DNA of 64,000 bases from an uncultured Candidatus Peribacteria bacterium (GTDB lineage: Bacteria > Patescibacteriota > Gracilibacteria > Peribacterales > Peribacteraceae): NCBI GenBank assembly GCA_964460475.1, contig CAYWPP010000004.1, positions 22,977 to 86,976 on the forward strand, read 5' to 3'. Position 1 is the first letter of the stretch. Each line of letters begins with the position of its first letter. The translations under genes were made by a program, and so were the position numbers. Below, one piece after another: positions 18,183 to 39,897 of the stretch. A model generated the notes under the pieces. The model made no database searches. It had not been told where the DNA came from and saw only the letters and a program-made list of their open reading frames with translations.

Positions 18183-18917
18183 CTACGTCGTCGGATCGGC
18201 ACCGAAGTAAATCTGCTGCAGCTCGCGCGATTTCTGCACGTCTTGGGGCTTACCGGTCAGCACGACCTCCCCCACGTCGAGGACGATGACGCGGTCGCAG
18301 ATCTTCGCGATGAACGGCAGATCATGTTCGATGATGAGTACGGTCTTCCCCTCCTCCTTCAGGGAGGCGATGAGATCCGCCACTTGATGCGTCATCTTCG
18401 GAGAGACGCCGGCGGTCGGTTCATCGAGGAGGAAGAGTTCCTTGCCTGCCTTCAGCGTCCGTGCGATTTCCAGAAGCCGCATCTGCCCGCCGGAGAGCGA
18501 GCCCGCCTTCTTCTTCGCATGTGCGGTGAGCCCGACCATGTCGAGCGTGCCCGCAACCGCCTCCTGCATGTTTCCAAGGAGGTCGCGCTGATCCTTTGGA
18601 AGAGATTCGAGCGCGACGAGCACGTTTTCTTCCAGTGTCATCTCGCGGAAAATGCCGAAGTTCTGGAACACGCGTCCGATGCCGAGCTGCGCGCGCTTCG
18701 CGGGTGACAGCTGCGTGATGTCATGACCGTGAAACAGAATCCTCCCGCTCTGAGGACGCAAGAAGCCCGAGAGCACATTGAAGAGCGTCGTCTTGCCCGA
18801 TCCGTTCGGACCGATGATGCCGATTACGTCGCCTTTGGGAATGTCGCAGGTGATCTCCTTGAGAATCCGGTGTTCCCCGATGGAGAAGCTGACGTGCGAG
18901 AGTGAGAGCAGAGCCAT
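18183..18917 (-). CDS. livG: ABC transporter ATP-binding protein (LivG-like)
   Basis: Walker A GPNGSGKTT, signature LSGGQMRLLEIAR, Walker B LFLLDEP. ATG 18917 gives MALLSLSHVSF. Confidence 0.9.
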   Translation of the reverse strand: MALLSLSHVSFSIGEHRILKEITCDIPKGDVIGIIGPNGSGKTTLFNVLSGFLRPQSGRILFHGHDITQLSPAKRAQLGIGRVFQNFGIFREMTLEENVLVALESLPKDQRDLLGNMQEAVAGTLDMVGLTAHAKKKAGSLSGGQMRLLEIARTLKAGKELFLLDEPTAGVSPKMTHQVADLIASLKEEGKTVLIIEHDLPFIAKICDRVIVLDVGEVVLTGKPQDVQKSRELQQIYFGADPTT

Positions 18918-18963
18918 TGGGGGAGAGAATAAACTGTTTGAAGAGAAAGAAACACCTTCAGGT

Positions 18964-19008
18964 GAAAATACGAGAATACTAAAATGCGAAAATACTAAAA
19001 AAAACATG
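18964..19008. repeat. left terminal inverted repeat of hairpin cassette 2
   Basis: GAAAATACGAGAATACTAAAATGCGAAAATACTAAAAAAAACATG. Its reverse complement occurs at 19460-19503, differing only in run length (A8 versus T7). Confidence 0.9.
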
Positions 19009-19075
19009 TGGAGGCGCTTTAAAGCACTAATGTGCAAAAGCAGACAACACACATGGCGCAGGATACCGTGACTCC

Positions 19076-19435
19076 ATGCCTGCACCGTACAAGTACGAAG
19101 CATTGGAAGAGCGCACGCTGGCGTTTGCCGCAGCCGTCCGTAAGTTTGCGAAGAATATTCCTCTCCATCACTACTCGGATGATTTGAGACAGCTACTCCG
19201 TTCCTCCGGTTCCGTGGGTGCAAACTACATCGAGGCGAATGAATCGTTGGGAAGAAAGGACTTCGTCATGCGTATACGGCTATGCAAAAAGGGGGCAAAG
19301 GAAAGCGCATACTGGCTCCGGCTTCTCGCTTTAGATGACACACATGGCAGTGCATACAGAAAACTGCGAAAGGAAGCACGCGAGCTGATGCTTATTTTTG
19401 CGGCCATTCTTCGGAAATGCGATAAGAAGAAATGA
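19076..19435 (+). CDS. four-helix-bundle protein (23S rRNA intervening-sequence protein family)
   Basis: LRSSGSVGANYIEANESLGRKDF and KGAKESAYWLRLL are family hallmarks. It lies inside the inverted-repeat cassette. Confidence 0.9.
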   Translation: MPAPYKYEALEERTLAFAAAVRKFAKNIPLHHYSDDLRQLLRSSGSVGANYIEANESLGRKDFVMRIRLCKKGAKESAYWLRLLALDDTHGSAYRKLRKEARELMLIFAAILRKCDKKK

Positions 19436-19459
19436 GTTTTCCCCTCTTTTGATGTTTCG

Positions 19460-19503
19460 CATGTTTTTTTAGTATTTTCGCATTTTAGTATTCTCGTATT
19501 TTC
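19460..19503. repeat. right terminal inverted repeat of hairpin cassette 2
   Basis: CATGTTTTTTTAGTATTTTCGCATTTTAGTATTCTCGTATTTTC. Confidence 0.9.
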
Positions 19504-19532
19504 ATCTTCGTTCTTCTCATTCCTCAAAAGAA

Positions 19533-21242
19533 CTACTTCTTTCTCGTGCAGGCCTTCATAAATGCATTAAATAACGGATGCGGTCTGTGCGGTCTGCTCT
19601 TGAATTCGGGGTGGAACTGCGACCCGAGCATGAAGGGATGATTCTTGACCTCCACGATTTCCATGATGCCGGTTCCGGGCCACTCGCCGGAGAAGACGAG
19701 TCCTTTCTCTTCCAGCTTCTTCTTGAGGGCGTTGTTGAACTCATAGCGATGGCGATGGCGCTCGGAGATCGTCTTCGTACCGTATGCCTCGTGAGCCTTC
19801 GTGCCGGGCTTCAGTTCGCACTCGTACGCACCGAGCCTGAGCGTGCCTCCTTTCGCTTTGCCTTTGTGCTGATCGGGGAGGAAGTGCACCACGTACTTCG
19901 AACGTGAACGCTCGCCGTCTTCATCGAATTCCTCGCTCGTGAGTGCCGGGTCCTTGAGCATGGCGCGTGCGAATTCAATGGCGAGAATCTGCGAACCCAG
20001 GCAGAGGCCGAGGTACGGAATCTTATGAGTACGGGCATGGCGGGCGGCTGCGATCTTTCCCTCGATACCGCGGATGCCGAATCCGCCCGGCACGAGGATG
20101 CCGTCGCAAGACCTGAGCGCATCCCATGTCTCTTTGTCGTTCTCTTCGAGCTTCTCGCTGCTCACCCAGACGATTTCGGCTTTGCGTCCGTAGTGGACGG
20201 CCGCCGACTTCAGCGCCTCGATCACGCTCAGGTACGCATCATCAAGTCCGGTGTACTTGCCGACGAGCGCAATCTTCACATCGCCATCCGCATCCTCGTA
20301 CCGACCCCTGCCCTTCTCCCACTCCGACATATCGGGCGCAATGTGGCCGAGCGCAAGCCGTGACCCGATGATCTGCGCGATGTCGTACTTCTGAAGATTG
20401 AGCGGCACATCGTAAATCGAGTTCACGGTCTGGGCGGGAATGACCGCACGACGGTCCACGTCGCAGAACCGGGCGATCTTGTCGAGGAGTTCGGCGGGAA
20501 TCTTGTAGTCCGCACGCGCGAGGATCATGTCGGGTTGCAGGCCGATGCGCCGAAGTTCACGCACGGAAAGCTGCGTCGGCTTCGTCTTCAGTTCCTTGGA
20601 ACCCTTCAGGTACGGCAGGAGCGTCAGATGCACGTGGAAGATGCGATCGTTGCCGAGATCGGAACGCATTTGCCGGATCGCCTCCAGAAACGGCTCGCCT
20701 TCGATGTCGCCGACCGTGCCACCGACCTCCACCATCATAATGTCGGCTCCGTTCTTCTCGGCTGCCTGCATGATGGAACGCTTGATGGCATCCGTGATGT
20801 GCGGCACCACCTGAATCGTCCCGCCGAGGAAGTCGCCTTTCCTCTCGCGCGCGAGCACGTCGGTGTAGATCTTTCCCGTGGTCACCGTGGAGAGTTTGCT
20901 CATCGGTTCGTCGATGAACCGTTCGTAGTGCCCCAGGTCGAGGTCGGTTTCCGCGCCGTCGTCCGTGACGAAGACTTCGCCGTGTTGGAACGGACTCATG
21001 GTACCGGGGTCGACGTTCAGGTACGGATCGAGCTTCTGCACGAACACTTTGAACCCGCAGGCCTTCATGATCGCACCGATACTGGCGGTCGCGATACCTT
21101 TTCCGAGCGAACTGCACACCCCGCCCGTCACGATGATGTAGCGCGAAGAGGCGGGAGCGCGTCCCGCGGCCGGAGTCTTCTTCTCGTTCTTCCCTTGCGG
21201 GATCTCTGGGGGTGTCCGTGTCTTCTGCTTCGGTGGAATCAT
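19533..21242 (-). CDS. pyrG: CTP synthase
   Basis: Synthetase domain (YIIVTGGVCSSLGKGI) plus glutaminase domain (GLCLGSQ, HRHRYEFN). ATG 21242 preferred; TTG 21257 possible. Confidence 0.95.
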   Translation of the reverse strand: MIPPKQKTRTPPEIPQGKNEKKTPAAGRAPASSRYIIVTGGVCSSLGKGIATASIGAIMKACGFKVFVQKLDPYLNVDPGTMSPFQHGEVFVTDDGAETDLDLGHYERFIDEPMSKLSTVTTGKIYTDVLARERKGDFLGGTIQVVPHITDAIKRSIMQAAEKNGADIMMVEVGGTVGDIEGEPFLEAIRQMRSDLGNDRIFHVHLTLLPYLKGSKELKTKPTQLSVRELRRIGLQPDMILARADYKIPAELLDKIARFCDVDRRAVIPAQTVNSIYDVPLNLQKYDIAQIIGSRLALGHIAPDMSEWEKGRGRYEDADGDVKIALVGKYTGLDDAYLSVIEALKSAAVHYGRKAEIVWVSSEKLEENDKETWDALRSCDGILVPGGFGIRGIEGKIAAARHARTHKIPYLGLCLGSQILAIEFARAMLKDPALTSEEFDEDGERSRSKYVVHFLPDQHKGKAKGGTLRLGAYECELKPGTKAHEAYGTKTISERHRHRYEFNNALKKKLEEKGLVFSGEWPGTGIMEIVEVKNHPFMLGSQFHPEFKSRPHRPHPLFNAFMKACTRKK

Positions 21243-21538
21243 AGAAAACCTGGGCAATCCTTCCGGGGGAGTGGTTCGACCTCGTTCACCACAAGAGGAG
21301 CCCGCCGAGAATTATACGGAGGAAAACGCCAAAATCAAGTTGAAACAGGTGTTGCGCCGGGCGGCGAATTTCCTATGATGGAACCACAAGAAAGAACATG
21401 ATGTTCCTTCTTGTACAGGGTCTCTTCGTTCTAGCACCACCGGGTATCATCCATTCATTGGAATCACCAGGTGCTAGGCGTAAGAGACTCTCTTTTTGCG
21501 TGTTGCGAGAGAGTCTCCACGCACCGGCATATCCGTCA

Positions 21539-23614
21539 TTATGAGTACAACCCCACCGTCAGGAGCGAGATGATCGTCATCAGCTTGATGAGGATGTTGA
21601 TGGACGGTCCCGACGTGTCCTTGAAGGGATCGCCCACCGTGTCGCCCACGACCGCGGCTTTGTGCTCGTCGCTTCCCTTCCCGCCGTGATGTCCGGCCTC
21701 AATGTACTTCTTCGCGTTGTCCCACGCACCGCCGCTGTTCGCCATGGAAATCGCAAGCAGCACGCCCGCAAGAAGCGAACCTGCAAGCAATCCGCCGAGC
21801 GCTTCCGCGCCGAGCGTCAGGCCCGTGAGGACCGGAGCGGCCACGGCCAGAAGACCGGGCAGCACCATCTCGCGAATCGCCGCACCCGTCGCGATAGATA
21901 CGCAACGAGCGGGATCGCCTTCCGCCTTGCCTTCCATGAGGCCTTTGATCGTTTTGAACTGGTGGCGCACCTCCTCGATCATGGCGAACGCCGCGCGTCC
22001 GACCGCGTTCATGGTCATGGCGGTGAAGACGAACGGCAACATGCCGCCGATGAAGAAGCCGATCAGCACGAACGGACTCGAGATGTCGATACTTTCAAGC
22101 TGTGCGCTTCCCGTGTACGCCGAGAAGAGCGCAAGCGCGGTGAGCGCCGCGGAGCCGATGGCGAAGCCCTTGCCGATCGCCGCGGTGGTATTGCCCGCCG
22201 AATCCAGTTCGTCCGTGCGGGCGCGCACCTGCTTCGGCAGCTTGCTCATTTCGGCGATGCCGCCGGCGTTGTCCGCGACGGGACCGTACGCATCGATGGC
22301 AAGCGATATGCCGAGCGTCGAGAGCATGCCGACCGCGCTGATGGCGATGCCGTAGAGCCCCGCCTGCATGAAGGCGATGGCGATGGCGATACAGATGAAG
22401 ATGATGGGCAGGGCGGTGGACATGTAGCCGAGCGCCAGTCCGCTGATGATGATGGTCGCGGCGCCGGTTTTGGAGGCTGCGGCGAGTTTCTTCACGGGTC
22501 CGTACTCGGCGGACGTGTAGTACTCGGTGAGCCAGCCGATAATCACGCCGACCACGAGGCCCGAGACGAAAGCGGTGAAGACGGAGAAAGCGATGATGGA
22601 GCTGTCGAAGACACGCTGACTCAGCACGTACGCCGCGATGACGACGAGGAAGGAGCTGATCAGGAGCCCGCGCTTCAGGGCGCCGTGCACGTTCTTGCTG
22701 CCCTTGCGGGTGCGAACGAAGAACGTACCGATGATGCTGCAGATGATGCCGATGCCGGCCATGAGCAGCGGGAAGATCACGGCACCGTTCTCTACGGTGT
22801 TGCCCGGGAACGTGAGCCCGAGAATCATGGCCGCGATGAGCGAGCCGACGTAGCTCTCGAACAGGTCCGCGCCCATGCCCGACACGTCACCGACGTTGTC
22901 ACCGACGTTGTCGGCGATGACCGCCGGATTCCTGGGATCATCTTCGGGAATGTTTTTCTCCACTTTTCCGACGAGGTCCGCACCCACGTCCGCCGCCTTC
23001 GTGTAGATGCCGCCGCCCACGCGGGCGAAGAGCGCGACCGACGACGCGCCGAAGCTGAAGCCGGTCATCACGCGAAGCGCATCCTCAAGAAGAAGTCCGT
23101 ACCGCTGCATGAGGATCATCAAGCATCCGACGAGGCCGAGCAGACCGAGACCGACGACGGAGAGCCCCATGTTGGCCCCCGAGAGGAACGCGACCCGAAG
23201 CGCCGCGCTAAGGCTCGAACGTGCCGCGTTCGTCGTCCTGACGTTGGCGGCGGTTGCGGTGCGCATGCCGATGAAGCCCGCAAGGACCGAGAGGAGCGCG
23301 CCCGCGATGAAGCTGCACATGGTGAGCGGCAGCTGCCATGCGCCGTTCTGCACTCCCTCGAAACCGGTATCGATAAAGAGGTAAAGCAGTCCTCCGACAA
23401 CGAGGATGAAGAGCATGATCACCTGGTACTCCTTCCACAGGAACGCCATGGCTCCCGCGCGGATGGCCGACGCGATAGTGCGCATCTTCTCCGTTCCCGC
23501 ATCCATCAAACCGATCTGAATGCGGAAGACGAACGCGGTGAAGAGCGCCAGCACGCCGCAGGCAAGAACGGCGACGAGCAGGGAAGAGAACGGATCGACG
23601 GCGAAAGCGTACAT
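21539..23614 (-). CDS. hppA: membrane-bound ion-translocating pyrophosphatase
   Basis: About 16 TM helices. Signature segments [28 protein letters not shown] and [11 protein letters not shown]. Confidence 0.95.
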
Positions 23615-24189: not shown

Positions 24190-26592
24190 TCACGGTCGCT
24201 CTTCCTCATGCCGCAACGCGACGTGCAGGGCAGAAAGTTGCGCCGCGGAGAGAATCGTCAGGAGCGACTCGTCATCGGCATTCCGGAGGGAAGAGATCGT
24301 AGGATGCATCTTCTGCAACTTCTTCTTCGTCGCGGGACCGATACCGGGGATCGTATCGAGCACCGACCGGCGACCCGCGGCAAGACCCTTCTTCTCGCGG
24401 AGCGAGTTCGCGAAACGATGCGCTTCGTCACGCAGACGACGAAGCAGGAAGAGCGCCGGCGCGTCCTTGGGGAAATCGACGGGGTGACTGTTCCCCGGCA
24501 CGAAGAGCTCCTCTTCCCTCTTCGCGAGCGCCGCGACGGGAATGGAGAGCGACAGGTAATCGAGAACCTCGACGGCGACGCCGAGTTGGCCCTTTCCCCC
24601 GTCGATCAGCAGAAGATCGGGGCGCTGCGTGAAGGAAGGGTCCGGGGCATTGGACTTCGCTTGGTACATCATGGCGAGGCCGCGCGGTTGTGCCGCATCG
24701 GCTTTATGATGCGTATCCAACCGCTCGCGAAGCACGGACGGCTCGGTGATAACGTGTTGAAAACCGAGCGACGCGTAGTACTGTTCCGACGCAACGTCGA
24801 TCGTGACGTACACTTTCCCCTTCTTGACGCGGCGCAGCATGAGGCGCGCGAGCAATCTGCCGAGTCCCTTGCCCCTGAGGGAAGCATGAACCCACAGGGA
24901 TGTGAGCTCGGTGACACTCTTGGGATGCGCAAAGAGACGGACGCACCCGACGATCTCGTCGCCTCTGCGCGCGACGAGAAGATCCGCCGGCTTCAAATCG
25001 GCGGCCTCGAATATCTTCTCCTCTTTCAGAATTTCCTTCACGCGGGCAACGTCCGCCTTGCGCGCCTTGCCGATGACGACTCCTTCATCTTTCCATCGTT
25101 GCTGCTCGGTTTTCAGATCGAGGGACAGGTACGCGAGTCTGCGTCGGAGTACCTCCCGCAAGGAGGCGTAGTCATCGATGTCCCCTTCCTTCAGGGACCG
25201 GATCGTGAACGAACGGTAGTGGTCGCGACGCGGCTTACCGTCGATCATCACGGTCATGCTTCCAACGGTCTCGGTGCCGCCGAGATGCGAGATGTCGTAC
25301 CCCTCGATGCGACGCGGCGGGGCCGACAGTTCGAGAGCCTCCTGCAGTCCGGTGAGCGCGGCATCGACGCGGCGGGCATCCGCCTCCCACTTCGCCTCGC
25401 TCTGCTCGGCCTTCCACCGTGCGTTCTTTTCCGCAAGAAGAAGGAGAGAGGATTTTTTGCCGCGCTGCGGAACGCGGATGGTCGTTTTCTTCCCGCGCCT
25501 TTCGTTCAGAAGTCGCACGAGAGCGTCGGCTTCGCCGGGTTCATCCGAGAGAATGATCTGATCGGGAAGATCCGAAGCGGCGAGATAGTACTGCGGCAGA
25601 AACTGATCGAGCACTTCGGCGACGCTGTCGGCATTTCCTTGCAGGGAAAAATTCTCCTCGGCGAGGAGTTTGCCGTCGCGCTGGCGAAACAGGACGACCG
25701 TCGCGCGGTTCGTATGCAGCGCGACGCCGATGATGTCGGCGTCATCGCCGGACGTATCGGACGCGAGCTGCTTTTCGTTCATGGCACGCAGCGATTGCAG
25801 CTGATTGCGCAGCTCCGCGGCCCGCTCGAATTTTCTCTCTTCCGCGGCTTGCTTCATCTTCGCCTCCAGCATTCTCTCGGCATCGTCACGTTTGCCGGAC
25901 AGAAACGCAATGACGCCGTCGATGGCACGCTCGCGATACTGTGCCGGAGTCACTTTGCCGACGCACGGCGCACAGCACTGCTTGATGTGGTGATCGAGGC
26001 ACGGCGTCGGACGGTCGCGGTGCAGGCAGGTAACGGCCAGAGGAATCGTCGCCTCGGATGAGGGTTCCTTCGGCATGATCTCCATGGTGCACGTGCGAAA
26101 CGGAAAAAGTTTGCGGAGGAACCCCAGCGTCGACCGCGCCTGCTCTGCGCTCGTCTTCGGACCGAAGTACAGCGCGCCGTCGTCTTCCATTTTCCTGACG
26201 ATATCGATCCGTGGATACGGATCCTTCATCGTGATGCGTACGTACACGTAGTGCTTGTCGTCCTTCATCATGATGTTGTACTTGGGTTTGAGTTCTTTGA
26301 TGAGATTGGTTTCGAGGACGATTGCTTCCAGATCGGAATTCACCACGGTCGTATCCACGTCGCGGATTTGGCGCACCATCATGTCTTTCCATGGCGAGTG
26401 TTTCTGCCCCGGCTGTACGTAACTCCTGAGCCTGTTGCGCAGATTCTTCGCCTTGCCGACGTAGAGCACCGCGCCGTCCTTATCGAGCCACTTGTAGATG
26501 CCGGGGCTCTGCGGAGCCTGCGCGATGCGTTGACGGAGAATCGCAAGCGCATCCTCCTGCTTCTTGCCGACACGTTTCTTTTTGGAAACCAT
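24190..26592 (-). CDS. uvrC: excinuclease ABC subunit C with an inserted GNAT-like domain
   Basis: GIY-YIG (GIYKWLDKDGAVLYVGKAKNLRNRL). UVR motif (ERKFERAAELRNQLQSL). C-terminal nuclease (EGYDISHLGG ... LLLIDGGKGQL). HhH (IPGIGPATKKKL). See the finding for the insertion. Confidence 0.9.
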   Translation of the reverse strand: MVSKKKRVGKKQEDALAILRQRIAQAPQSPGIYKWLDKDGAVLYVGKAKNLRNRLRSYVQPGQKHSPWKDMMVRQIRDVDTTVVNSDLEAIVLETNLIKELKPKYNIMMKDDKHYVYVRITMKDPYPRIDIVRKMEDDGALYFGPKTSAEQARSTLGFLRKLFPFRTCTMEIMPKEPSSEATIPLAVTCLHRDRPTPCLDHHIKQCCAPCVGKVTPAQYRERAIDGVIAFLSGKRDDAERMLEAKMKQAAEERKFERAAELRNQLQSLRAMNEKQLASDTSGDDADIIGVALHTNRATVVLFRQRDGKLLAEENFSLQGNADSVAEVLDQFLPQYYLAASDLPDQIILSDEPGEADALVRLLNERRGKKTTIRVPQRGKKSSLLLLAEKNARWKAEQSEAKWEADARRVDAALTGLQEALELSAPPRRIEGYDISHLGGTETVGSMTVMIDGKPRRDHYRSFTIRSLKEGDIDDYASLREVLRRRLAYLSLDLKTEQQRWKDEGVVIGKARKADVARVKEILKEEKIFEAADLKPADLLVARRGDEIVGCVRLFAHPKSVTELTSLWVHASLRGKGLGRLLARLMLRRVKKGKVYVTIDVASEQYYASLGFQHVITEPSVLRERLDTHHKADAAQPRGLAMMYQAKSNAPDPSFTQRPDLLLIDGGKGQLGVAVEVLDYLSLSIPVAALAKREEELFVPGNSHPVDFPKDAPALFLLRRLRDEAHRFANSLREKKGLAAGRRSVLDTIPGIGPATKKKLQKMHPTISSLRNADDESLLTILSAAQLSALHVALRHEEERP

Positions 26593-29567: not shown

Positions 29568-31970
29568 TCACTTCTTACGCTCGTTCTTCTTGCGCTCTTT
29601 CGGCCGCAGGAAGTCGGGTAGCAGAATGGGCGGAACGATGCCGGGGAGCGATTCGATGACGGGAAGATCGTTGAGCGCAAGACGTCCCACGTACAGACGC
29701 CGCAAATCCCCGCCGCTGTCGGCAAACGCGGCGATATCCCGGTATCCACGGAAGTACGCAACGTCCTTGGTGAAGGCGCCGGGCTGCGCGGTGTCGCCCA
29801 TTCCCCGCTTGAGCGTCCAGGCTTTCCGCAAAGCTTTCTCCGGAGAGAAGCCGAGTTCTTCCAGATATTCCCGCGTCTCCCGGAAACCGTGGTGGAGCGC
29901 GTACTCGACGCCGAGCGTGCCGCGGGGGGCCCAGTATCGCTTATCATGCGAATCGGGAAGCACGCGATTCTGCAGATACACCGCAAGCCCCTCTTGCGTA
30001 TCGAGGTATCCGGCACAACCGACCTGCAGCAATTGGTAGGGCTGATGCCCGGCATTCTCCGATGTCAGGACGTGCGCTTCGATCTCGTGCGCGATGAGGG
30101 CGTCGACGTGCACCGGCTCGAACATCGCGTCCTCCCGCAGAAAGACGCTGCGGCCTCCCACCGCACAATCCGCGGAAAGCTGCGCTTTGATCCGCACCTC
30201 CCAGTCATGCAATCCGTAGCGTTCCAGCACCGCGGCGAATCGTTTCTGCACTTTCTGTGCCGAGAGGAGATCTTTCTCGCGCGGAGGCAGATCGCATGCG
30301 TCGCGATGTCGGAGCGCGCGCTCCGCCTCTCCGATAAGATCGGGAGTAGGAACGCCGTACAGATCCGTCGAGAAATGCGTGAATGCGTCATTATTGCCGC
30401 GTGACTCCAGGAGATCGAGACGCAGCAGCAGCTCTCGCTTCTTCTTACCGAGCAGAGTGCCGAGCGGCGTGTCATCGGTACGGACTGCGCGCACTCTCTC
30501 GCGTGTTTCCGGGAAATCGAGTTCCGTCGGCGCGTAGGAGAAGTGGGGCTCATAGGCGCAATCCGTGCGAAGGCGCGCGAGGTGTGTCGACGCTTCCAGC
30601 GGGCGCAACGCTTTCAGGAGCGGAATTTCACGATGCAACTCGGCAAGCTGCCTGTCCGCGCTGTGCAGATCGGCTTTGATTTTCGTTCTCGGTCCGGCGA
30701 TGCTCCGGGGCTCCCGCCTGTTCGGATCGATGAGGAATCCCTTCAGATCGCGCCTGCCGAGCGACACGCGCACCGGCGAATCGATGTGCTTGCTGACGAT
30801 AATCGTCTGGATTTTCTTGCCGCCAAGCAGGAACCGCACGCGATACGTGCCCTCCGTTTCGTTCTCCGGTTCCAGAACGCCGCGCTCCAGAAGCTCATCC
30901 ACGAGATCGGGGGCGAAAGCCGTTCGCTCATGTTTGGCATGGATGTGGCAGGCGATTTCGATGTTCTCATCCTCATCGGGAATGGTGATGGTTTCCGTCA
31001 GTCCCAGCGTGGGCATGTCGACCTGCGATGCGCGCGGCGCGGACGTCTGGCCGAAGAGTTCCTTGCCGAGCAGCACGCCTTTCTCCGGAGTCGGCACACT
31101 GAGGCCTGCAACACGTTCCAGACGGGAGCGGAGCGGAGCGAGATTCGCAATCTGCACGCTGAGTCCAGCACGGGCATTGACCTCCAGAAGCTTGGGGCCA
31201 CCCTCTTCATCAATCGTCATGTCCACCGCGAGATACCCGATATTCGTCACCTGCTGAATACGGGAACATGCGAGGAGGATGTCGTCCCAGAAGGGAATCT
31301 TCATGCCGGCGAACTCTCCGCCGTGCGGCAGCGCCTGAATGGTCTTGTTCCGCTGCGCCGCGAACGTGGTGGCGCCCTTCGCGAGATCGATGCCGATGCC
31401 GATACCGCCCAAATGCATGTTTGCCTTGCCGCCGCTCTCGGCCGTGGGAATACGCAGCATGGCCATAATCGGCACGAGGTTGAAGACCACGATGCGAAGG
31501 TCCGGCAATCCGGCGGGGCGGAAACGCGCGAAGCAGGAGTGGGGAATGAGAAGTTCCTCGAAGAACGCCGTATCGTTGCGTCCGTTCACGGAAAATTTTC
31601 CGTCGAGAATATCCTCGATGTGCTCGAAGAGGTTTTGCCGCGTCACCGGATGTTTTCCCTTCTCAAGAAACATTCCTTTCTTCTTTCCGCGCAGGATACG
31701 AATCCCCTCGCCGCCGTACCCGTAGTTCGGCTTCAGCACGCACTCGTCGGGCAGCTTGGAAAAATCGAACGCGCGGAGTTCGTCGCGCGAGGAGATGGTC
31801 GCATACACCTTCGGCACGGGGATGCCGCGCGTCGCCAAAAACAGCTTCGTACGCAACTTGTCATCGGCGAACGCCGTCACCGAACGCGGATTGAAGGGTT
31901 TGACGTAGAGGAGATTGCGGGCGTTGAGACCGAGGACGCCGCGCGTGGAGAGGAACGGGAGAACGGCCAT
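29568..31970 (-). CDS. triple-fusion protein: RimK-related ATP-grasp (alpha-L-glutamate ligase-like), RimB-like (retropepsin-like 'Zn-protease') module, DUF1704 / QEGLA-motif carboxypeptidase-like domain
   Basis: N-terminus: LGLNARNLLYVKPFNPRS..ADDKLRTKLFL and EVNARAGL (ATP-grasp). Middle: ...RVSLGRRDLKGFLIDPNR (RimB-like end). C-terminus: HEIEAHV ... DTQEGLAVY (QEGLA motif). Confidence 0.8.
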   Translation of the reverse strand: MAVLPFLSTRGVLGLNARNLLYVKPFNPRSVTAFADDKLRTKLFLATRGIPVPKVYATISSRDELRAFDFSKLPDECVLKPNYGYGGEGIRILRGKKKGMFLEKGKHPVTRQNLFEHIEDILDGKFSVNGRNDTAFFEELLIPHSCFARFRPAGLPDLRIVVFNLVPIMAMLRIPTAESGGKANMHLGGIGIGIDLAKGATTFAAQRNKTIQALPHGGEFAGMKIPFWDDILLACSRIQQVTNIGYLAVDMTIDEEGGPKLLEVNARAGLSVQIANLAPLRSRLERVAGLSVPTPEKGVLLGKELFGQTSAPRASQVDMPTLGLTETITIPDEDENIEIACHIHAKHERTAFAPDLVDELLERGVLEPENETEGTYRVRFLLGGKKIQTIIVSKHIDSPVRVSLGRRDLKGFLIDPNRREPRSIAGPRTKIKADLHSADRQLAELHREIPLLKALRPLEASTHLARLRTDCAYEPHFSYAPTELDFPETRERVRAVRTDDTPLGTLLGKKKRELLLRLDLLESRGNNDAFTHFSTDLYGVPTPDLIGEAERALRHRDACDLPPREKDLLSAQKVQKRFAAVLERYGLHDWEVRIKAQLSADCAVGGRSVFLREDAMFEPVHVDALIAHEIEAHVLTSENAGHQPYQLLQVGCAGYLDTQEGLAVYLQNRVLPDSHDKRYWAPRGTLGVEYALHHGFRETREYLEELGFSPEKALRKAWTLKRGMGDTAQPGAFTKDVAYFRGYRDIAAFADSGGDLRRLYVGRLALNDLPVIESLPGIVPPILLPDFLRPKERKKNERKK

Positions 31971-31978
31971 GAGGGATC

Positions 31979-31987
31979 AGTATAGCA
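31979..31987 (-). promoter_or_regulatory. extended -10 TGCTATACT, 8 nt upstream of ATG 31970
   Basis: The minus strand reads CTCTGCTATACTGATCCCTC-ATG. The same 12-mer CTCTGCTATACT occurs upstream of the gene at 40650. Confidence 0.5.
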
Positions 31988-32056
31988 GAGAAAAAGTGCT
32001 TTCCTCGGAACCCTACAAGCTCACAACGTTGCAGGCGGTAGCGTGCAGGCGACGAG

Positions 32057-33568
32057 TCATTCCTGGAGATGCGAGAACACTTCGCGGAAGCGGAAGTACT
32101 CGATGAGTCGCAGACCGGAGTAGCGGCCGAGGAGGAAGTTGAGCGGCAGCGTCATGAGGATGCTCTCGGGGTACGCGAGGATGAACGACTGCAACATGGG
32201 AAGACGCACGATGAAGACGCAGAGCAGCGCGGCGAGAACGGTTTCGACGATGCCGTAGAGAGCGGACAGCATGCCCTCGGTCCCTTCGAGCGTCAGGAAG
32301 CTTTCCGAGAGCGTCGACATGATGAGCAGGACGAAAATCGTATCCGGCGCCAGCACGATGCCGAATGACGCACCGAGCGCAAGCGCGAGAAGGAGGATGA
32401 TGCTCACGACGCTCAGGACGATGGCGATTTTGGGGATGTAGAGAATACGCCACCGCTTCATGACTTTGCGGGAGACGTAACTGCCGAAGAGAATGAAGGA
32501 GAGGAACACGATGCCGATGGGCCAGCCGAGCGCCAAGAAGCTGAGTGCGATGATCGACGGCGTGTAGAGACCGAAGGTCGTCACGCCGATCACCTGCTTT
32601 AAGAACGCGAGGATCGTCGCGATGACGGGAAGCATGAGCAGAAGAATCACGGTCTGACTGGAAATGCCGTGCATCAACATGTAGTTCACGAGGAGCGACA
32701 GCACGTTCCACGGACGCACGGAGAGCGAAGACGCATCGAGCGCCACCGTCTCGATGTCGCGCTGCTGCAGCGTGTCGATGAAGTTCGTGATGTCGGTCGC
32801 CGAGAGGAGCGGATTGATCGATTCGTTGCGCGTCAGCAGGAGATTCGCGGGCTGCATGACGGAAAACGGACCGCGCACGGCACGGCCCAACGTGTGCAGA
32901 CTCCCCTCGCTGATGACGACGAGCGAGAGATTCTGCAGCGTCTGCAGGCGCTCGGCATCGCTACGCGAGGCGCGCATGAGCGCCTGCATGCCTGCGATGG
33001 GATCGCCCGTCCACAGCACGACCGCGTCGGCGTTCGCAAGCCTGTCGAACTGATCGCCCAGAAGCTGCACCAGAGACTCTTCGACACCGAGCGGAATGGC
33101 CGACACGGGAGGCTTGAGTACCTGCAGGAAGACGCCTTGCTCCGCGGCGGTTTCCTGATGCACGGAGAGCTTGTCCGACGAGACGCTCTGGTCGGCGATG
33201 ACGACGATTTTGCGCGTGAAAACGGTAATCGTGCGCTCCGTCTCGGACTCGAACGTTTCCCCGTCGATCTCCTGTCTGACGACGAGGCGGATGACGAACT
33301 CGCCCGGTTCCTCGGGCGTGAACAGCGCTTCCACGGAACGGCTGATCGACTGGGTAAACTGGTCCTGATGCCATTCGTACGTGATTGCTCCGCTTGCGGT
33401 TCTACTCGCCGACGCGTCGAGAACGATCGTGCGTCCCACCTGCACTTCGGACGGTCCCGAGATAACTGCGCGCGGCACGTCCGGCGGCGCATCTTGCGCC
33501 ACGGCAAGAAAAGACGGAACAAGGAACGTTCCGAGCGTGCCCGCGAGAACGGCAAGCGAGCGCGTCAC
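32057..33568 (-). CDS. PKD-like ectodomain fused to the 7TM module usually found fused to inactive transglutaminases
   Basis: Signal peptide. PKD-like segment (ISGPSEVQVGRTIVLDASAS...YEW). C-terminal 7 TM helices ending LLGRYSGLRLIEYFRF. GTG start overlaps the hpf stop (GTGA). Confidence 0.7.
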   Translation of the reverse strand: MTRSLAVLAGTLGTFLVPSFLAVAQDAPPDVPRAVISGPSEVQVGRTIVLDASASRTASGAITYEWHQDQFTQSISRSVEALFTPEEPGEFVIRLVVRQEIDGETFESETERTITVFTRKIVVIADQSVSSDKLSVHQETAAEQGVFLQVLKPPVSAIPLGVEESLVQLLGDQFDRLANADAVVLWTGDPIAGMQALMRASRSDAERLQTLQNLSLVVISEGSLHTLGRAVRGPFSVMQPANLLLTRNESINPLLSATDITNFIDTLQQRDIETVALDASSLSVRPWNVLSLLVNYMLMHGISSQTVILLLMLPVIATILAFLKQVIGVTTFGLYTPSIIALSFLALGWPIGIVFLSFILFGSYVSRKVMKRWRILYIPKIAIVLSVVSIILLLALALGASFGIVLAPDTIFVLLIMSTLSESFLTLEGTEGMLSALYGIVETVLAALLCVFIVRLPMLQSFILAYPESILMTLPLNFLLGRYSGLRLIEYFRFREVFSHLQE

Positions 33569-33918
33569 GAGCGGCGGAACGCGGAACGAAGTTTCTGCAT
33601 TCGACCCCGTTGTGTGTGCGATTCCTTGTACCGTTTGATCTGCGGTTCGAGCTTCTCGATACAGCGATCAAGAGCATCGAGCGCACGCGGCTTCCTGGAT
33701 TCCGCGCGGAGAATCTTCTTCGGAAGGTGAACCGTCACCATCACTTTCACCTGGTCGTTCTGCTTCTTCGTGTTCCTGCTTTCGGATTCCACGCGGATCT
33801 TCGATCCCTCGTCCTTCAGACGACGGCAGTAGGTGGCGAGCTTGCCGAGCTTCTTGGCAAGCAGCAGAAGGTCTTTATCGGTGTATCGGACGCCTTTTTC
33901 GTAGTGTTCGACATGCAT
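33565..33918 (-). CDS. hpf: ribosome hibernation promoting factor / RaiA family (short form)
   Basis: S30EA fold pattern: LAKKLGKL...VKVMVTVHLPKKILRAES..RALDALDRCIEKLEPQIKRYKE. ATG 33918 gives MHVEHYEK. Confidence 0.8.
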   Translation of the reverse strand: MHVEHYEKGVRYTDKDLLLLAKKLGKLATYCRRLKDEGSKIRVESESRNTKKQNDQVKVMVTVHLPKKILRAESRKPRALDALDRCIEKLEPQIKRYKESHTQRGRMQKLRSAFRRS

Positions 33919-34064
33919 GGGAAAACGCGGGGGAAGAACGCGCGATATCCTAGCAAAAAGAATGGTGAAGGAATAGTGAAGAAGGGCCGACATGCGCCGA
34001 TGTAGTCGTACTGCGACTGACTCTCTTTGCCGTTCGGGAAGTCCTTTTAAAAGAGAGAAAAATC

Positions 34065-35546
34065 ATGTATAATACTAAGAAATTCACATCCACTCCTATG
34101 CCTGAAGGTTTTGAGTCCTTATCGGAACACGCCGGTGACGTGCGTGACGAACTGGAGCGTCTGCGCGCGCAGATAGCTGCGAACGAGGCGGCGGACGCAC
34201 TGCAGGAAGAAGAGAGCGATGAGCCTCGGGAGACTGACGAAGCGTCAACGGAGAGCGACGAACAGGTCCGCAAGATTCTCACGGAAGGCCTGACGCCCGC
34301 GGTTAAGAAGTACGTCGAAGCCGTACAGGGCATTGAGGTGGAATCTTCGCATCTTGCGCGGAACGAGAGGTTCGCGAAGTTTCTGGAGATCAAAAATGCG
34401 CTCGTTGACGAAGCATTGTCGGGCATTGATCTCGATCCCGCTGCACTCGTAAGTGGCCTCACCGAAGGAAGAGTGACGCTGGACAGCCTGCGGCAGATGA
34501 CCGTCACGGACACGAATGACGAGAAGGAAGCACTGCGATCGGTGATGACGCTCGGCGAAAAAGTTCGCGAAGGCCTCGGTTCCTTCCTGGAAAAAAGCGG
34601 CCTCGGCAGAATGGCGGAAGGATTCGGCATGGATGTCTCTTCCCTCTTCCCGTTGCTTATCCCCCTTCTGGCCGGAAAGCTGGATGCAATGGGCGCCACA
34701 CCCGGCATGACCTTCTTCCGCAATGCTGCGTTCAAGATGCGCGCATACGAAGCTCGTGAACAGGCGAAAGCCGAAGGGTACGATCGTGAGACGATCAGCG
34801 CGGCAATGCCCGCGTGGGAAACGGCGTACAAAGAGTGGATGAAGAATCCGCCGGAATCCGCAGGGCCGCCGCCGGACTTTTCCTCGATGATCGCACAGCA
34901 GGCAGCGGAGACGGCACAGCAGGAACAGGAACGCGTACAGACGGAAGCACGCGAAGAGCTTGCCTCCGCATTCAGGGAATACGCGACGACGCACGGACTC
35001 CTTCCCGGCACATCCGCCATCGAAGTTACCGAGAGCGAAGCGACTCTGGAACGGAAGGACGGAGGTATCACGGCACGTCTGCCGGAAGCCGCATTCGCAA
35101 AGCAGGAAGACGGAAGCTTCACGCTCACGGCGCAGGGCGAAGCGCTCCGAAATCTGTTGCCCGTCATCGCGGAACACGAGAACGTGAAAACGATCACGCC
35201 GTCGGACACATTGGAAGTGTCGGGAGGTGAACAGGGCATCGACGTGAAGGCTTCGATCGACGGTACGAACATGACGCAAGAACGTCTGGCACACGCCCTT
35301 ACGTTCCTGCCGAGCACGCGCATCCGCTCGGTGAAACTCGACGCGCTGAATGCCGGCACGAACGCCGGCTTCGCGAAGCTGGAAAACGGAACGCTCTTCG
35401 TGAACTACAAAGCGCTCGACGGTGATATGAATCAGGCGGCGCTGAAAGAGAAGGTGGAGAATTTCGCCGTGATCAGCGAAACCGACGTGCATCTGTGGGA
35501 GCACGACGGAAGAGAATGGAATGAACATTCCCCCGCCCAAGCATGA
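34065..35546 (+). CDS. hypothetical acidic protein (493 aa)
   Basis: Coding-like codon usage, whereas the two long antisense ORFs are Ser/Arg/Cys-rich junk. ATGA overlap with the next ORF. No domain recognised. Confidence 0.6.
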   Translation: MYNTKKFTSTPMPEGFESLSEHAGDVRDELERLRAQIAANEAADALQEEESDEPRETDEASTESDEQVRKILTEGLTPAVKKYVEAVQGIEVESSHLARNERFAKFLEIKNALVDEALSGIDLDPAALVSGLTEGRVTLDSLRQMTVTDTNDEKEALRSVMTLGEKVREGLGSFLEKSGLGRMAEGFGMDVSSLFPLLIPLLAGKLDAMGATPGMTFFRNAAFKMRAYEAREQAKAEGYDRETISAAMPAWETAYKEWMKNPPESAGPPPDFSSMIAQQAAETAQQEQERVQTEAREELASAFREYATTHGLLPGTSAIEVTESEATLERKDGGITARLPEAAFAKQEDGSFTLTAQGEALRNLLPVIAEHENVKTITPSDTLEVSGGEQGIDVKASIDGTNMTQERLAHALTFLPSTRIRSVKLDALNAGTNAGFAKLENGTLFVNYKALDGDMNQAALKEKVENFAVISETDVHLWEHDGREWNEHSPAQA

Positions 35547-35788
35547 CGCATGAGCGATTGCCAACGTCAGAAGTGCCGGCATCGGACGTCGTGGAGACAG
35601 CCTCGATGCGCACACGCGACAAAATCTTTCGCGCTATCGGTAATACCGTGGAAATCACGACGGACACGGCCGTCTTCGGAGCGAAAGCGACGGGCTACTC
35701 CCTTGGGAAAACACTCCAGGGAATAGGTCAGAGCATCTACGGCCTTCTCAAAGGCATCACGGACAAGGAATTCCCCCACTCCCGATGA
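35543..35788 (+). CDS. hypothetical small protein (81 aa)
   Basis: ATGA overlaps at both ends. Gly/Thr-rich central segment. Confidence 0.5.
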   Translation: MTHERLPTSEVPASDVVETASMRTRDKIFRAIGNTVEITTDTAVFGAKATGYSLGKTLQGIGQSIYGLLKGITDKEFPHSR

Positions 35789-38700
35789 GAAACAATCCTG
35801 CGGCACAACAGGAAGCGGCCGTGTTCCTGGAAGCGCTCCGCGCCGAGGAACCGGTGAATGCGCGCGATCTTCTTGATAAGCACAAAGATGCGCCCGACAT
35901 TCTCGATGCGGTCGGCGAAGAACTTTCGAAGCTCGACAAAAAGCAGCAGGAGTTGATCTCTCTCAATCTGCGGAACCTGGAAAAGCAGATCAGCGCGACG
36001 GAACAAAATGAAGAGACATCGCGATTGAAGGCACAGGTGGAAACATGGAGAAAGTCATTGGAGACGGCACACGTATCGGTATCGGCCGAAGCACGTGCGA
36101 GCGAAACGACACAGACGGAAGAAACCAACGAGGAATTACCGAGCACGCCTCCTCAAGGATTCGTTGACACCATGAAAGTGTACGCGTCGAAAACGAAGGA
36201 ATGGGCCAAGGAACAGCTCGATGTCACAAAGTGGTCATCCACAAAGAAGGCAACGGTTGCGACTCTGACATTGGGAGCGGCGGCACTGCTTGCCTATCTT
36301 GCCTTCCGTAAATCAAAGGCAGAAGGAGGAGAACGAGAAAAAGAACGCAACGGTTTTCCAAAATGGCTCCTGTGGGTACCGGTACTTGGCATTGCGAGTT
36401 GGGGAGCATATAAGCTCTATCAGCACTCGCAATCCATCAATGACATCACTGAGAACCTCCAAAGCACATCAGAGAATATTGCAGGCGGTGCAGGTGCAAT
36501 AAGGGACATAGCAACTGGAGCTGGTACAGAACTCGCATCTACCGGCGCAGAAGTGGCTGACACTCTCTACCGAGATGGAAAATTTTGGATTGATCTTTTC
36601 AGCAAAGACGATCTATCAGAAGCGATGCAACACTTCATCGTATCTGGCGCCATTCTTGCAGTAGAAAATGGCATGACTGTTCTTCATGTTGCTAGCAGAA
36701 CAATTGTCCTTCCAGGGCTCTCGATAGAAAAATTCCTCAAGTGGGGTGCAACGGGAGAAAAAGACGAGGACATATGGCTTGTGTATGGGCAGGCAGGAGC
36801 TGCTTACTTTATGGGAAAAACCGCCTTTAATCTTCTCGCAAGAGGTCATTTGCAAATCCCACTTACCAGGAAAGACGCACTTTTCACTGCATTAAAAATT
36901 GGAAGCGGGCCTCTTGATATGGTTGCAGATGCTCTCAGCATCGGTGGGACTGCCGCTAGGGGAGCTCATGGAAGAGAGGCGGTATACATTCGATATGCTC
37001 GACAAAACATTGTCGCCAAAGGAATGAGGAAATATCGAATGTGGAGATTAAGTGGTAAGCCAGAAGGTATTCAAAGAGGTCTCAAGTATTGGAAGAGCCT
37101 TATGCGAGACTGCGACATCATGCAAATGTTCAAAGGCGAAGGTAAGCTCTTTTCAGAGCAGGAGTATGAAAAAGCAGTCAATGCAAGGAAGGCATTGGCA
37201 AATAAGATTGCAAAGGCTCTCAACAGACTTAGCCCGAAAGACTTGGAAAAATCAGGTCTAAAAGAATTAAAAAAATACAGCAATTTGGAGGTTGCCGAAT
37301 TTGAAAAATGGACCGATAAGTACATCAATGATCTCATTCCTTCCCAAGCCAAAAACACTGTCACTACAAGTGCTGCTACATCTCCCCATATTCCCGGGGA
37401 ATTGACTGAAGCATCTCCAGTCCGCAAGGCCGCAGGTGCGGAACGCATGACTCCGGAGCCTGCTCCACGTACGTCCGCTCCATCCTCGGAAGGTCCGCGG
37501 CTGTATGATCCCGACAATCTGCTGGATAAAGAAGCGCGAACAGCTTCGGATGCCGTGACGGAAAGTGCCGACGCCATGCCCCGGACGACAGATGAACTCT
37601 TCAGTGCCATTGCGGATGCACGCAACGCGGGCGACGATGCAAGGCTCGCGAAGTTGATGGAAAGTCCGCTCCTCCGGGAAACGGCAAAAAACGGAAACAA
37701 GGAAGCACAGGCATTGCTGCGAGCCAGGACGTTCGCGGCGCGCGCTCTCTCCAGAGGAAAGGAAACCGCAAGAATCGCGGGGAAAGTGGCGGGACCCGCA
37801 CTCGCGGGATTCGGCATCCTGCTCGATACGTATCTGGTCATCGATAACGAAGTGCAGCTGGCGGAAGCCCGAAAGAAGCAAGATGCCCTTGAAATCGACA
37901 GGCTGGAAGCAAGAGGACGGAGCTTGAAAGCCGCGGGTATCGGCGGCGTCGCCACTCTTGCGCTTGCCGGTCCTGCCGGACTCGTCGTCGGGGCGGCGGT
38001 AGCTGCCGCATCCGTCTACACCGAAGCCGTCTACGCATCCGTGGAAGAATGGAACAGAACCGCCGAATCGTGGAAGAAACTCGATACCGCCACGCTCCTG
38101 CAGGAAATCGAACGGTACGTCGGCGAAGTGAGTGCGGCGAACGTCACCGCATCGCCCGGGGTGCTCGCGGGAAATCTGGAAGGAGTGAACGCGGTGAACA
38201 GCGATGTCCGCTCCGAGATCTATGCCGCCTATCTCGTCAGATCCACATTGCTTCCGAAAATGCATGCCGAAACGGACGCGCAGTACGCGGACCGCGTGAA
38301 GCTCGCGGTGAGAAGTAAGCTCGCCTACATCAGCAACGTGACGGGCCGATCATTCGACAGAGTCACGACGGACACGTTACGCAATGCGGATGCCTACGCG
38401 GAGCTCGTTGCCCTCAAGGAAAAACGCAGGAGCATGAATCTCCCCCTGACCGTCACGTTCCCGTCGATCGGCGGCGACATGACCATCGATCTGGAGAAAG
38501 TCGACGTCACGCGAACCGAGCGGGGCGAACTCTGGAAGATGCTCAATGAGTACGAGAAATCCATCAAGCCGATGATGACGGCAATCGAGATGCAAGCCGC
38601 GTTCGAAGCGGGCCGGGATGCCGGAATCGACTATCGTGAAAAGACGAAAGCCGCCCTGCACGAAGCGGTACTTGCGGAAATCCGCCATGATGTTCATCGT

Positions 38701-38997
38701 GCGGAACAATCGCTGAGAAACGTGAATTTCAGCGGCATCGCCGACGAGCACGAACGTACGGTTGTACGCATGCTCATCGCGGCCGAGCAGGAGAAAAGCG
38801 TCGCAACACTGACGGAGCTTGTGGGAACTGAAACATTCACGGGGGAACAATTTGCGAAGACGATCGATACGCTGCGATCGAACATTCAAGGCATGACGGC
38901 CAATGCGCAAACGACATACGACAATGCTCCCGATTCCATGAAGAAACAAACATACGGAGAAGAGCAGTCCAACATCCTGATCGCGTTGACGTCCTAG
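35785..38997 (+). CDS. hypothetical large membrane protein (1070 aa, coiled-coil regions plus two TM clusters)
   Basis: TM pairs at about residues 160-215 and 690-760, with long helical Glu/Lys/Ala-rich stretches. No catalytic motif recognised. Confidence 0.65.
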   Translation: MRNNPAAQQEAAVFLEALRAEEPVNARDLLDKHKDAPDILDAVGEELSKLDKKQQELISLNLRNLEKQISATEQNEETSRLKAQVETWRKSLETAHVSVSAEARASETTQTEETNEELPSTPPQGFVDTMKVYASKTKEWAKEQLDVTKWSSTKKATVATLTLGAAALLAYLAFRKSKAEGGEREKERNGFPKWLLWVPVLGIASWGAYKLYQHSQSINDITENLQSTSENIAGGAGAIRDIATGAGTELASTGAEVADTLYRDGKFWIDLFSKDDLSEAMQHFIVSGAILAVENGMTVLHVASRTIVLPGLSIEKFLKWGATGEKDEDIWLVYGQAGAAYFMGKTAFNLLARGHLQIPLTRKDALFTALKIGSGPLDMVADALSIGGTAARGAHGREAVYIRYARQNIVAKGMRKYRMWRLSGKPEGIQRGLKYWKSLMRDCDIMQMFKGEGKLFSEQEYEKAVNARKALANKIAKALNRLSPKDLEKSGLKELKKYSNLEVAEFEKWTDKYINDLIPSQAKNTVTTSAATSPHIPGELTEASPVRKAAGAERMTPEPAPRTSAPSSEGPRLYDPDNLLDKEARTASDAVTESADAMPRTTDELFSAIADARNAGDDARLAKLMESPLLRETAKNGNKEAQALLRARTFAARALSRGKETARIAGKVAGPALAGFGILLDTYLVIDNEVQLAEARKKQDALEIDRLEARGRSLKAAGIGGVATLALAGPAGLVVGAAVAAASVYTEAVYASVEEWNRTAESWKKLDTATLLQEIERYVGEVSAANVTASPGVLAGNLEGVNAVNSDVRSEIYAAYLVRSTLLPKMHAETDAQYADRVKLAVRSKLAYISNVTGRSFDRVTTDTLRNADAYAELVALKEKRRSMNLPLTVTFPSIGGDMTIDLEKVDVTRTERGELWKMLNEYEKSIKPMMTAIEMQAAFEAGRDAGIDYREKTKAALHEAVLAEIRHDVHRAEQSLRNVNFSGIADEHERTVVRMLIAAEQEKSVATLTELVGTETFTGEQFAKTIDTLRSNIQGMTANAQTTYDNAPDSMKKQTYGEEQSNILIALTS

Positions 38998-39025: not shown

Positions 39026-39826
39026 GTGCCCCTCTCCTACTCCCAGCTGCAGACGTACAGGCGCTGCCCGCGGCAGTATGAGTATGCATACGTGAAGAAG
39101 TTGCCTGCGCCGCTGTCGGCGGGTGAGAGCTTCGGCTCCAGCATTCATAACACGCTCAAGAAGTGGGGCGAATTAGAATTGATGGAGAGTTCCGCGTTAC
39201 GGGTTGATTCCACAAATCAACTGGCATTGTTTATTGAAAAAAACGATCAACCCGTAACGCGCAACGCGCTGACCGAAGAAACATTATTACGCCTCTGGCA
39301 CCAATCGTTCATTGTCGAAGGATATGCGACGCGCGTGGAGGCGGATTTCCAGAGGAGCATCGGCGAGAACATCCTGCGCGATTTCTTCGCCTGGTGGAGC
39401 ACCGAACCGCACGAGGTCGTCGTGATCGAGAAGGGATTCACCTGCACGCTCGAAGGCGGCGAAACGCTGAGCGGAAGATTCGACCGCGTCGAGAGGACGG
39501 AACACGGCCTTCGCATCATCGACTTCAAGACCGGCGATCCCCGCCCGCAGGAGAGCGTGGATGCGGACCTGCAGCTCTCCATCTACGCGCTCGCCGCGCG
39601 GGATCTCTGGGAAGAGCCCGTGGAAGAACTGGTGTTTCTGTTTCTGAATCGTGACGGAATCACGGCTCTCTCAACCACGCGCAACGCATCGCAACTGCAT
39701 GATGCGGCAAAGAGCATTCGCGTTCTTGCCGAGAGAATCACGGAAAAGGACTTCCGGCCGACACCGGCCCTTGAGAAGTGCAGACGCTGTCCGTACAGAC
39801 GCGTGTGTGATGTGGCAGCTGTGTAA
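39026..39826 (+). CDS. PD-(D/E)xK nuclease, Cas4/AddB-like with a Cys cluster
   Basis: N-terminal SYSQLQTYRRCPRQY. Core FDRVE...LRIIDFKTG and QLSIYALA. C-terminal CRRCPYRRVC, completing the 4-Cys arrangement typical of Cas4-like nucleases. Confidence 0.8.
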   Translation: MPLSYSQLQTYRRCPRQYEYAYVKKLPAPLSAGESFGSSIHNTLKKWGELELMESSALRVDSTNQLALFIEKNDQPVTRNALTEETLLRLWHQSFIVEGYATRVEADFQRSIGENILRDFFAWWSTEPHEVVVIEKGFTCTLEGGETLSGRFDRVERTEHGLRIIDFKTGDPRPQESVDADLQLSIYALAARDLWEEPVEELVFLFLNRDGITALSTTRNASQLHDAAKSIRVLAERITEKDFRPTPALEKCRRCPYRRVCDVAAV

Positions 39827-39897
39827 AAATAAAATAAAAAATAAGAAATAAGAAAATAAAAAACGTTTCTTATTTCTTATTTCTAATTTTTTATTTC
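39827..39897. terminator. AT-rich palindrome, likely a bidirectional terminator between convergent genes
   Basis: Perfect 14-bp stem TAAGAAATAAGAAA (39842-39855) pairs with TTTCTTATTTCTTA (39866-39879), with a 10-nt loop. A-rich upstream and T-rich downstream. Confidence 0.7.

Follow-up and report, generated by a model that had tools for sequence, protein, structure and literature searches.

The stretch of DNA considered here (the window) comprises 64,000 nucleotides of contig CAYWPP010000004.1, positions 22,977 to 86,976 of the forward strand, in the GenBank assembly GCA_964460475.1 of an ultra-small, uncultured Candidatus Peribacteria bacterium. Slightly past its middle lie three co-directional open reading frames (ORFs) on the plus strand, which we call A, B and C, or ABC as a group. 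Our analyses show that ABC is a real, conserved and modular orphan operon, and that its largest product, C, defines a protein family. The three genes and the promoter-like site ahead of them are the following:

34046 to 34073, plus strand: promoter-like site TTTAAA-16-TATAAT, with 10 of 12 consensus matches (a match to the consensus only)
34098 to 35546, plus strand: gene A, 482 amino acids (aa), or 493 aa if the ATG at 34065 is used
35543 to 35788, plus strand: gene B, 81 aa, whose start codon shares an ATGA with the stop codon of A, as seen in the sequence itself
35785 to 38997, plus strand: gene C, 1070 aa, whose ATG overlaps the stop codon of B (ATGA); a predicted all-alpha membrane protein and the defining member of its family

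A first-pass annotation, made from the letters of the DNA, had described a three-gene set coupled by ATGA overlaps, with products of 493, 81 and 1070 aa. Both overlaps (35543–35546 between A and B, 35785–35788 between B and C) can be read in the sequence, and the three plus-strand ORFs are present. The sizes given for B and C also stand, but A is probably 482 aa long. The public gene call for A begins at M12 (34098), and three shorter A-like proteins of neighbouring genomes begin with MPTPE, MSTPE or MPPPD, which resembles the MPEGF at M12, so that a start at 34098 is probably the right one rather than 34065. A consensus scan returned TTTAAA-16-TATAAT as the sole sigma-70-like site in the region; it overlaps the ATG at 34065 and would fit a start at 34098. 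Because of the ATGA overlaps, this single upstream promoter-like site, and the lack of any detected plus-strand terminator inside the set, A, B and C are best read as one operon. Long antisense ORFs are also present in this 58% G+C DNA. The plus-strand frames are real genes and not chance ORFs, because C, A and B all have homologues and because G+C content at the third codon position (GC3) is the highest of the three positions in each of them; the full order of GC3 > GC1 > GC2 (first and second positions) is found only in A. The 5′ leader folds no better than shuffled sequence, an Rfam scan found only a tRNA-Glu, and no flanking repeats that would point to a mobile element were found around ABC.

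The operon resembles no published family or system. Searches of A, B and C against Pfam, NCBIfam, PADLOC and PHROGs gave only noise, far below the curated cut-offs. In PADLOC-DB v2, which includes Zorya ZorA/ZorB, the best match for A was DpdH (E 0.012, over 31 aa) and the best for C was Csx1 (E 0.14), neither of them credible. Thirty homologues of C had no Pfam match at E<=0.001 and no recurrent weak match at E<=1, and long C paralogues (1600–2300 aa) added only a low-complexity repeat; in all, 30 plus 5 plus 4 family members had no Pfam match. Sequence-profile searches of the PDB with profiles of the A, B and C families returned nothing below E 0.026, and word-indexed searches for relatives of C and of A brought back nothing but the query or the public gene call for it. 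Structure comparison gave the same picture. With Foldseek, the model of C had no significant match in the PDB (best E 0.46), and neither did the model of A (best E 0.28). Against BFVD, the best match of C had E 5.5e-3 with a TM-score of 0.06, the matches being generic long-helix proteins such as tape measures. Overall confidence in the models is moderate, with a mean predicted local distance difference test score (pLDDT) of 68 for C and 65 for A, but reaches 80–95 in the conserved domains. The earlier view that the three proteins have no recognisable domains and cannot be placed in a known family is thus borne out by both the profile searches and the Foldseek comparisons of A and C. One candidate motif was rejected: the Walker-A-like AAYFMGKT at aa 339–346 of C falls in a helix that is predicted to be hydrophobic, and relatives do not keep it; we do not read it as a P-loop.

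Although C has no known relatives by domain, it is far from alone. A phmmer search of 1.84 billion representative proteins returned 104 homologues at E<1e-3, 60 of them at E<1e-10, with source names such as “Candidatus Peregrinibacteria” and “Candidatus Peribacterales”. The family, which public records carry only as “hypothetical protein”, counts about 100 representative proteins of 1000–2000 aa, and the C described here is among its shorter full-length members; a protein of 1332 aa (P0054), for example, is a homologue at E=1e-13. Using a profile built from 21 C homologues, we found the family in 82 of 151 genomes of the same GTDB family, representing 53 of its 84 genera, at one to four paralogues per genome and with presence varying within genera. 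Sampling the whole class, with 300 genomes plus the window’s own, gave 28 matches within that GTDB family (f1) and a single one outside it (G304), for which Pfam, NCBIfam, PADLOC and PHROGs gave nothing useful. The C family is therefore restricted to one lineage, the Peregrinibacteria/Peribacterales.

Within this lineage, C occupies the same chromosomal site in more than 20 inspected loci across genera. On one side the usual gene order is L25, DUF3048, ATP-grasp/MATCAP, 7TM and hpf; beyond hpf come a gene in the position of A (190–680 aa), a small gene (60–175 aa) and C, followed 3′ of C by a Cas4-like nuclease or DUF212, and then by ProRS or VIT1. An A-like gene precedes C at most of the examined loci and a B-like gene at at least 16 of about 24; a few inspected loci lack, or only doubtfully have, the A-position gene or the small ORF. 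The flanking genes are 48–72% identical between genera, against about 25% for C. In six genomes of the GTDB family without a match to the C profile, no C-like ORF adjoins hpf either, and in one genome (G022) hpf is immediately followed by the nuclease and then ProRS, with ABC missing. The three genes are therefore acquired or lost all at once, and the nuclease is part of the backbone around them. A trio that was not conserved as a unit would have counted against the first-pass annotation; what we see across genera is that the three genes are conserved together, and where they are absent they are absent together. The site can also expand. At one locus (L054, G088:C8, 4302–18623), three tandem C paralogues of 1694, 1450 and 1419 aa follow a single A gene, and are followed in turn by the nuclease, DUF212 and ProRS. 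As a separate observation, in a relative that lacks C (L047, G001:C1:377001-389500), the hpf-adjacent site holds three orphan ORFs of 304, 383 and 356 aa (913–4066) with no transmembrane segments and no Pfam match. The site next to hpf may be a hotspot for lineage-specific genes.

The two smaller proteins differ in how well they can be followed between genomes. A is very acidic (net charge −37 in the 493-aa form) and lacks a signal peptide. Its AlphaFold2 model describes a helical N-terminal half of low confidence, helices at about aa 205–300, and a C-terminal alpha/beta domain at about aa 300–480 of the 482-aa form, where pLDDT is 80–90. A has full-length homologues at 24–29% identity. Clear homologues occur in five genomes (G102, G020, G088, G113 and G131), and the copies in G102 and G088 lie just upstream of C genes. 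Proteins in the A position are far more diverse than the B-like small proteins. B has an acidic N-terminus followed by an amphipathic helical segment rich in Gly, Thr and Ala (TRDKIFRAIG...GAKATGYSLGKTLQGIGQSIYGLLKGI). Its homologues sit directly upstream of C homologues in other genomes, identity between genera is 30–38%, and the small proteins at 16 loci share its layout, with a charged N-terminus, a [TS]R motif and a Gly/Ala/Thr-rich amphipathic segment.

C is built from several parts. The transmembrane hairpins were defined by hydrophobicity averaged over 30 family members:

36247 to 36420, plus strand: putative transmembrane hairpin 1 of C (aa 155–173 and 194–212, with a 20-aa loop)
36502 to 37344, plus strand: middle helical domain of C (aa 240–520), a putative exchangeable cassette inside a patch of low GC3 (about 36200–37350)
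37357 to 37569, plus strand: predicted disordered linker of C rich in Pro, Ser, Thr and Ala (aa 525–595), with pLDDT 30–37 and low alignment occupancy
37786 to 38004, plus strand: putative transmembrane hairpin 2 of C (aa 668–686 and 722–740, with a conserved 35-aa loop); G670, G677, N688 and P738 are conserved
38062 to 38949, plus strand: conserved C-terminal helical domain of C (aa 760–1055), the core of the family, with the signature N805-x3-R809-x5-A815-Y816

Two clusters of transmembrane helices had been proposed for C at first sight, and the averaged hydrophobicity bears this out as two hairpins, both Gly/Ala-rich and both conserved in the family. The model of C is all-alpha, with pLDDT of 80–95 at aa 760–1055, 65–92 at aa 235–520 and 69–85 at aa 1–95. 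Hairpin 2 and the C-terminal domain together (the C-module) are shared most widely, occurring in about 83% of the family, against about 55% for the N-terminal module. Over 104 family sequences, P0003 included, R809, A815 and Y816 are 94–98% conserved, and W756, N805, A868, A872 and R995 are conserved as well; among the conserved residues of these 104 sequences there is no catalytic-type signature of His, Cys or Ser. BLAST found no matches for aa 531–600. We also considered an internal duplication and rejected it, as hhalign gave a probability of 0.1% for the N-terminal module against the C-module. Since C lacks a signal peptide and the residues ahead of its third transmembrane helix are strongly positive (Lys and Arg 5.8 versus Asp and Glu 1.3), the simplest topology would place aa 1–150, 213–665 and 745–1070, and with them most of the mass of C, in the cytoplasm.

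In its composition and in its similarities, C is a chimera. GC3 is 0.39–0.42 at about aa 150–520, compared with 0.58–0.79 over most of the rest of the gene and 0.66–0.82 in neighbouring genes, and this segment falls within the lowest 1.6% of 1150-nucleotide coding windows in the genome (mean 0.71, standard deviation 0.10). The nearest overall relative of C (P0005, at L017) matches hairpin 1 at 51% identity and also matches aa 590–1070, but its middle region has no meaningful alignment to the middle domain of C. Conversely, a protein from a genome of lower G+C (P0006, at L018) is 44% identical to the middle domain across 283 residues; between its C-terminal half and that of C, BLAST detects no similarity. 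Among 24 homologues, those that match the middle domain hardly ever also match hairpin 1 or the C-module, and GC3 steps inside the gene are also found in two other family members (L027 and L016). Given the low GC3 and the split in similarity between P0006 and P0005, the middle domain behaves as a cassette that is exchanged by recombination between lineages. Such an exchange explains an AT-rich segment that the first-pass annotation had recorded separately. We looked for co-variation between the type of A and the type of middle domain and did not see it, the closest A (in G102) being paired with a C that lacks this middle domain. Elsewhere in the genome, the coding windows of lowest GC3 (0.32–0.45 versus a mean of 0.71) lie on contigs C4 (C4:20747-24085, overlapping positions 1–1109 of the window), C10 (about 5000–22600) and C20 (5086–9258), and a dip in composition is also seen at 1–2000 of the window. 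These lowest-GC3 stretches on the three contigs are likely to be horizontally acquired islands.

The genome to which the window belongs is 1.10 Mb in 27 contigs and 96% complete, and its size and G+C content match those of published Peribacter genomes (1.25 Mb, 58.5% G+C; PMC4736985). ABC is preceded on the opposite strand by hpf, a 7TM protein and an ATP-grasp/MATCAP fusion, and is followed by a Cas4-like nuclease, a VIT1 transporter and a tRNA-Glu. The nuclease and the repeat behind it are as follows:

39026 to 39826, plus strand: Cas4-like PD-(D/E)XK nuclease (PF12705, 3e-38), 41–63% identical in relatives
39832 to 39896, no strand assigned: AT-rich 31-nucleotide inverted repeat between the convergent nuclease and VIT1 genes, with 87% complementary arms and a 3-nucleotide loop

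The Pfam match upholds the earlier description of the nuclease. The promoter of its own that had been attributed to it was not recovered: the consensus scan found no promoter-like site in the 28-nucleotide gap between C and the nuclease, and there is no terminator in that gap. The nuclease is therefore probably co-transcribed with ABC in this window, and the inverted repeat at 39832–39896 probably acts as a terminator in both directions, closing the transcription unit. A functional link between ABC and the nuclease was considered and rejected, since the nuclease stays beside hpf in the genome without ABC (G022). By this comparison, it is conserved chromosomal backbone and not part of the ABC unit. 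Inside the nuclease coding region we also noted a second inverted repeat of 20 nucleotides (39189–39208 and 39246–39265), 95% complementary with 37 nucleotides between its arms. The divergent cluster at 29568–33993 on the minus strand (hpf, a PKD/7TM protein and an 800-aa ATP-grasp/MATCAP fusion) is 48–71% identical across genera; we found no link between it and ABC, since ABC can be absent. Further away, the UvrC gene at 24190–26592 on the minus strand carries, according to Pfam, a GNAT acetyltransferase domain inserted between its nuclease domains. This insertion is kept in another genome (G004), at 54% identity over 787 aa.

What might such an operon do? We tentatively favour, as a possible rather than a probable answer, that ABC encodes an accessory membrane complex or scaffold that is specific to Peribacterales and non-enzymatic, with a constant core and an exchangeable specificity cassette. 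C would be the anchor, with its two Gly/Ala-rich hairpins in the cytoplasmic membrane and three large helical regions facing the cytoplasm. B, produced together with C through the ATGA overlap, would be a stoichiometric partner whose amphipathic helix packs on the hairpins or on the inner membrane surface, and A would be an acidic soluble partner contributing a novel alpha/beta domain. The constant core would be the conserved hairpin 2 and C-terminal domain of C, and the middle domain would be the cassette swapped between lineages, most likely setting what the complex binds. A, B and C would be physically associated, in a role of scaffolding or binding instead of catalysis. Comparable architectures exist. 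Like TipN, EzrA and the HMW scaffolds of Mycoplasma, C is predicted to be membrane-anchored, mostly cytoplasmic, rich in helices and non-enzymatic, with a poorly conserved sequence, although this is an analogy and no homology was detected. Coiled-coil membrane scaffolds and polar organisers of this kind (TipN, EzrA, HMW) are usually kept throughout a lineage; ABC, unlike them, is absent from about 45% of the genomes of its GTDB family and exchanges an internal domain.

Several points weigh against the scaffold proposal. “Scaffold” is a conclusion by exclusion, and the complex of A, B and C is drawn from the genes and from separate models of A and C. Hydrophobicity and charge are the sole basis for the topology of C, which two further, moderately hydrophobic helices (aa 284–302 and 330–350) could alter, and pLDDT is low where the model places the hairpins. 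In addition, at many loci homology between the A-like protein and the A described here cannot be demonstrated. Finally, the patchy distribution, the expansion of paralogues and the recombination fit a role in conflict or in host interaction equally well.

A role in conflict, either as an anti-phage or abortive-infection system or between bacteria, would have A sensing an invader, C perturbing the membrane through its glycine-rich hairpins and B restraining C. Besides the patchiness even within genera, and the one to four paralogues, some of them in tandem, this idea draws on the extreme divergence of C relative to its flanks, on the exchanged intragenic cassette of foreign composition, and on the nuclease gene immediately downstream with no terminator between. 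However, no PADLOC model matches A, B or C, and domain searches of the three found nothing that could serve as sensor or effector, be it an ATPase, a nuclease, a protease or another such domain. The chromosomal site is fixed among housekeeping genes and is no defence island, and the nuclease is retained where ABC is absent. On balance we consider a conflict system unlikely.

Host interaction could take the form of export, with C inserted into the membrane of a host cell in the manner of chlamydial Inc proteins or translocators, B and perhaps A serving as dedicated chaperones, and the swapped middle domain following host targets. A symbiotic lifestyle has been inferred for Peribacteria (PMC4736985), which is in line with such a role. 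The likeness to Inc proteins is one of analogy: both have paired, closely spaced hydrophobic helices (the “bilobed” hairpin, of which C has two, at aa 155–212 and 668–740), large helical and coiled-coil regions on one side of the membrane, a lineage-specific and fast-evolving sequence and no enzymatic domains. The small helical B, translationally coupled to C, would suit the part of a chaperone. Inc proteins, however, are small (100–400 aa) and are exported by a type III system. At 1070 aa and with two hairpins C is unlike them, and it shares no sequence or fold similarity with them. In the 96%-complete genome we found no type III export gate (FHIPEP) and no VirB4, the controls being positive. 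C has no signal peptide, most of its conserved mass is predicted to be cytoplasmic, and there is no known route for a 1070-aa protein with four hydrophobic helices. Export into a host membrane is thus, in our estimate, distinctly improbable.

A bolder suggestion, and one to which we give similarly little credence, is that the C family and its small partners form the core of a cell-contact or host-interaction apparatus specific to Peribacteria, in which the hairpin and C-terminal module would be the machine, and the middle cassette and the variable A would choose the partner cell or target.

That ABC is the remnant of a phage tail module, with two chaperone-like genes ahead of a tape-measure protein, is very improbable: C is long, alpha-helical and mosaic, has hydrophobic segments and follows smaller genes, as tape-measure genes do, and it has a weak PHROG match (aa 1–74 to a tape-measure family, E 0.006) with tape measures among its top, non-significant BFVD matches, but these are at noise level (TM-scores <0.12, the PHROG match covering only a coiled coil), no other phage gene and no flanking repeats lie nearby, the flanks (hpf, the ATP-grasp system, the nuclease, VIT1 and tRNA-Glu) are in conserved synteny, and the C family holds the same chromosomal site across genera. 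The probability that remains we leave to functions that we have not thought of.

The genomes of Peribacteria and of other members of the candidate phyla radiation are tiny (about 1.1–1.25 Mb), yet here a single operon takes up about 5 kb, and in some relatives its large gene is present in as many as four copies. Because of this cost and these copies, the operon is unlikely to be junk, although orphan operons are numerous in such genomes. What is new here is that the trio is present or absent as a block, that the nuclease is excluded from the unit, and that C demonstrably exchanges a domain cassette. Swapping a domain between lineages is how proteins evolve when their partner, for instance a host, a phage or a neighbour, keeps changing. 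In addition, C and A contribute two domains that are modelled with confidence and appear to have no known fold relatives. If the cell-contact suggestion were true, ABC would represent a new symbiont interface, independent of Sec and of type III secretion, that evolves like a surface-antigen system. The C family gives a concrete handle, open to testing, on the biology of these uncultured symbionts.

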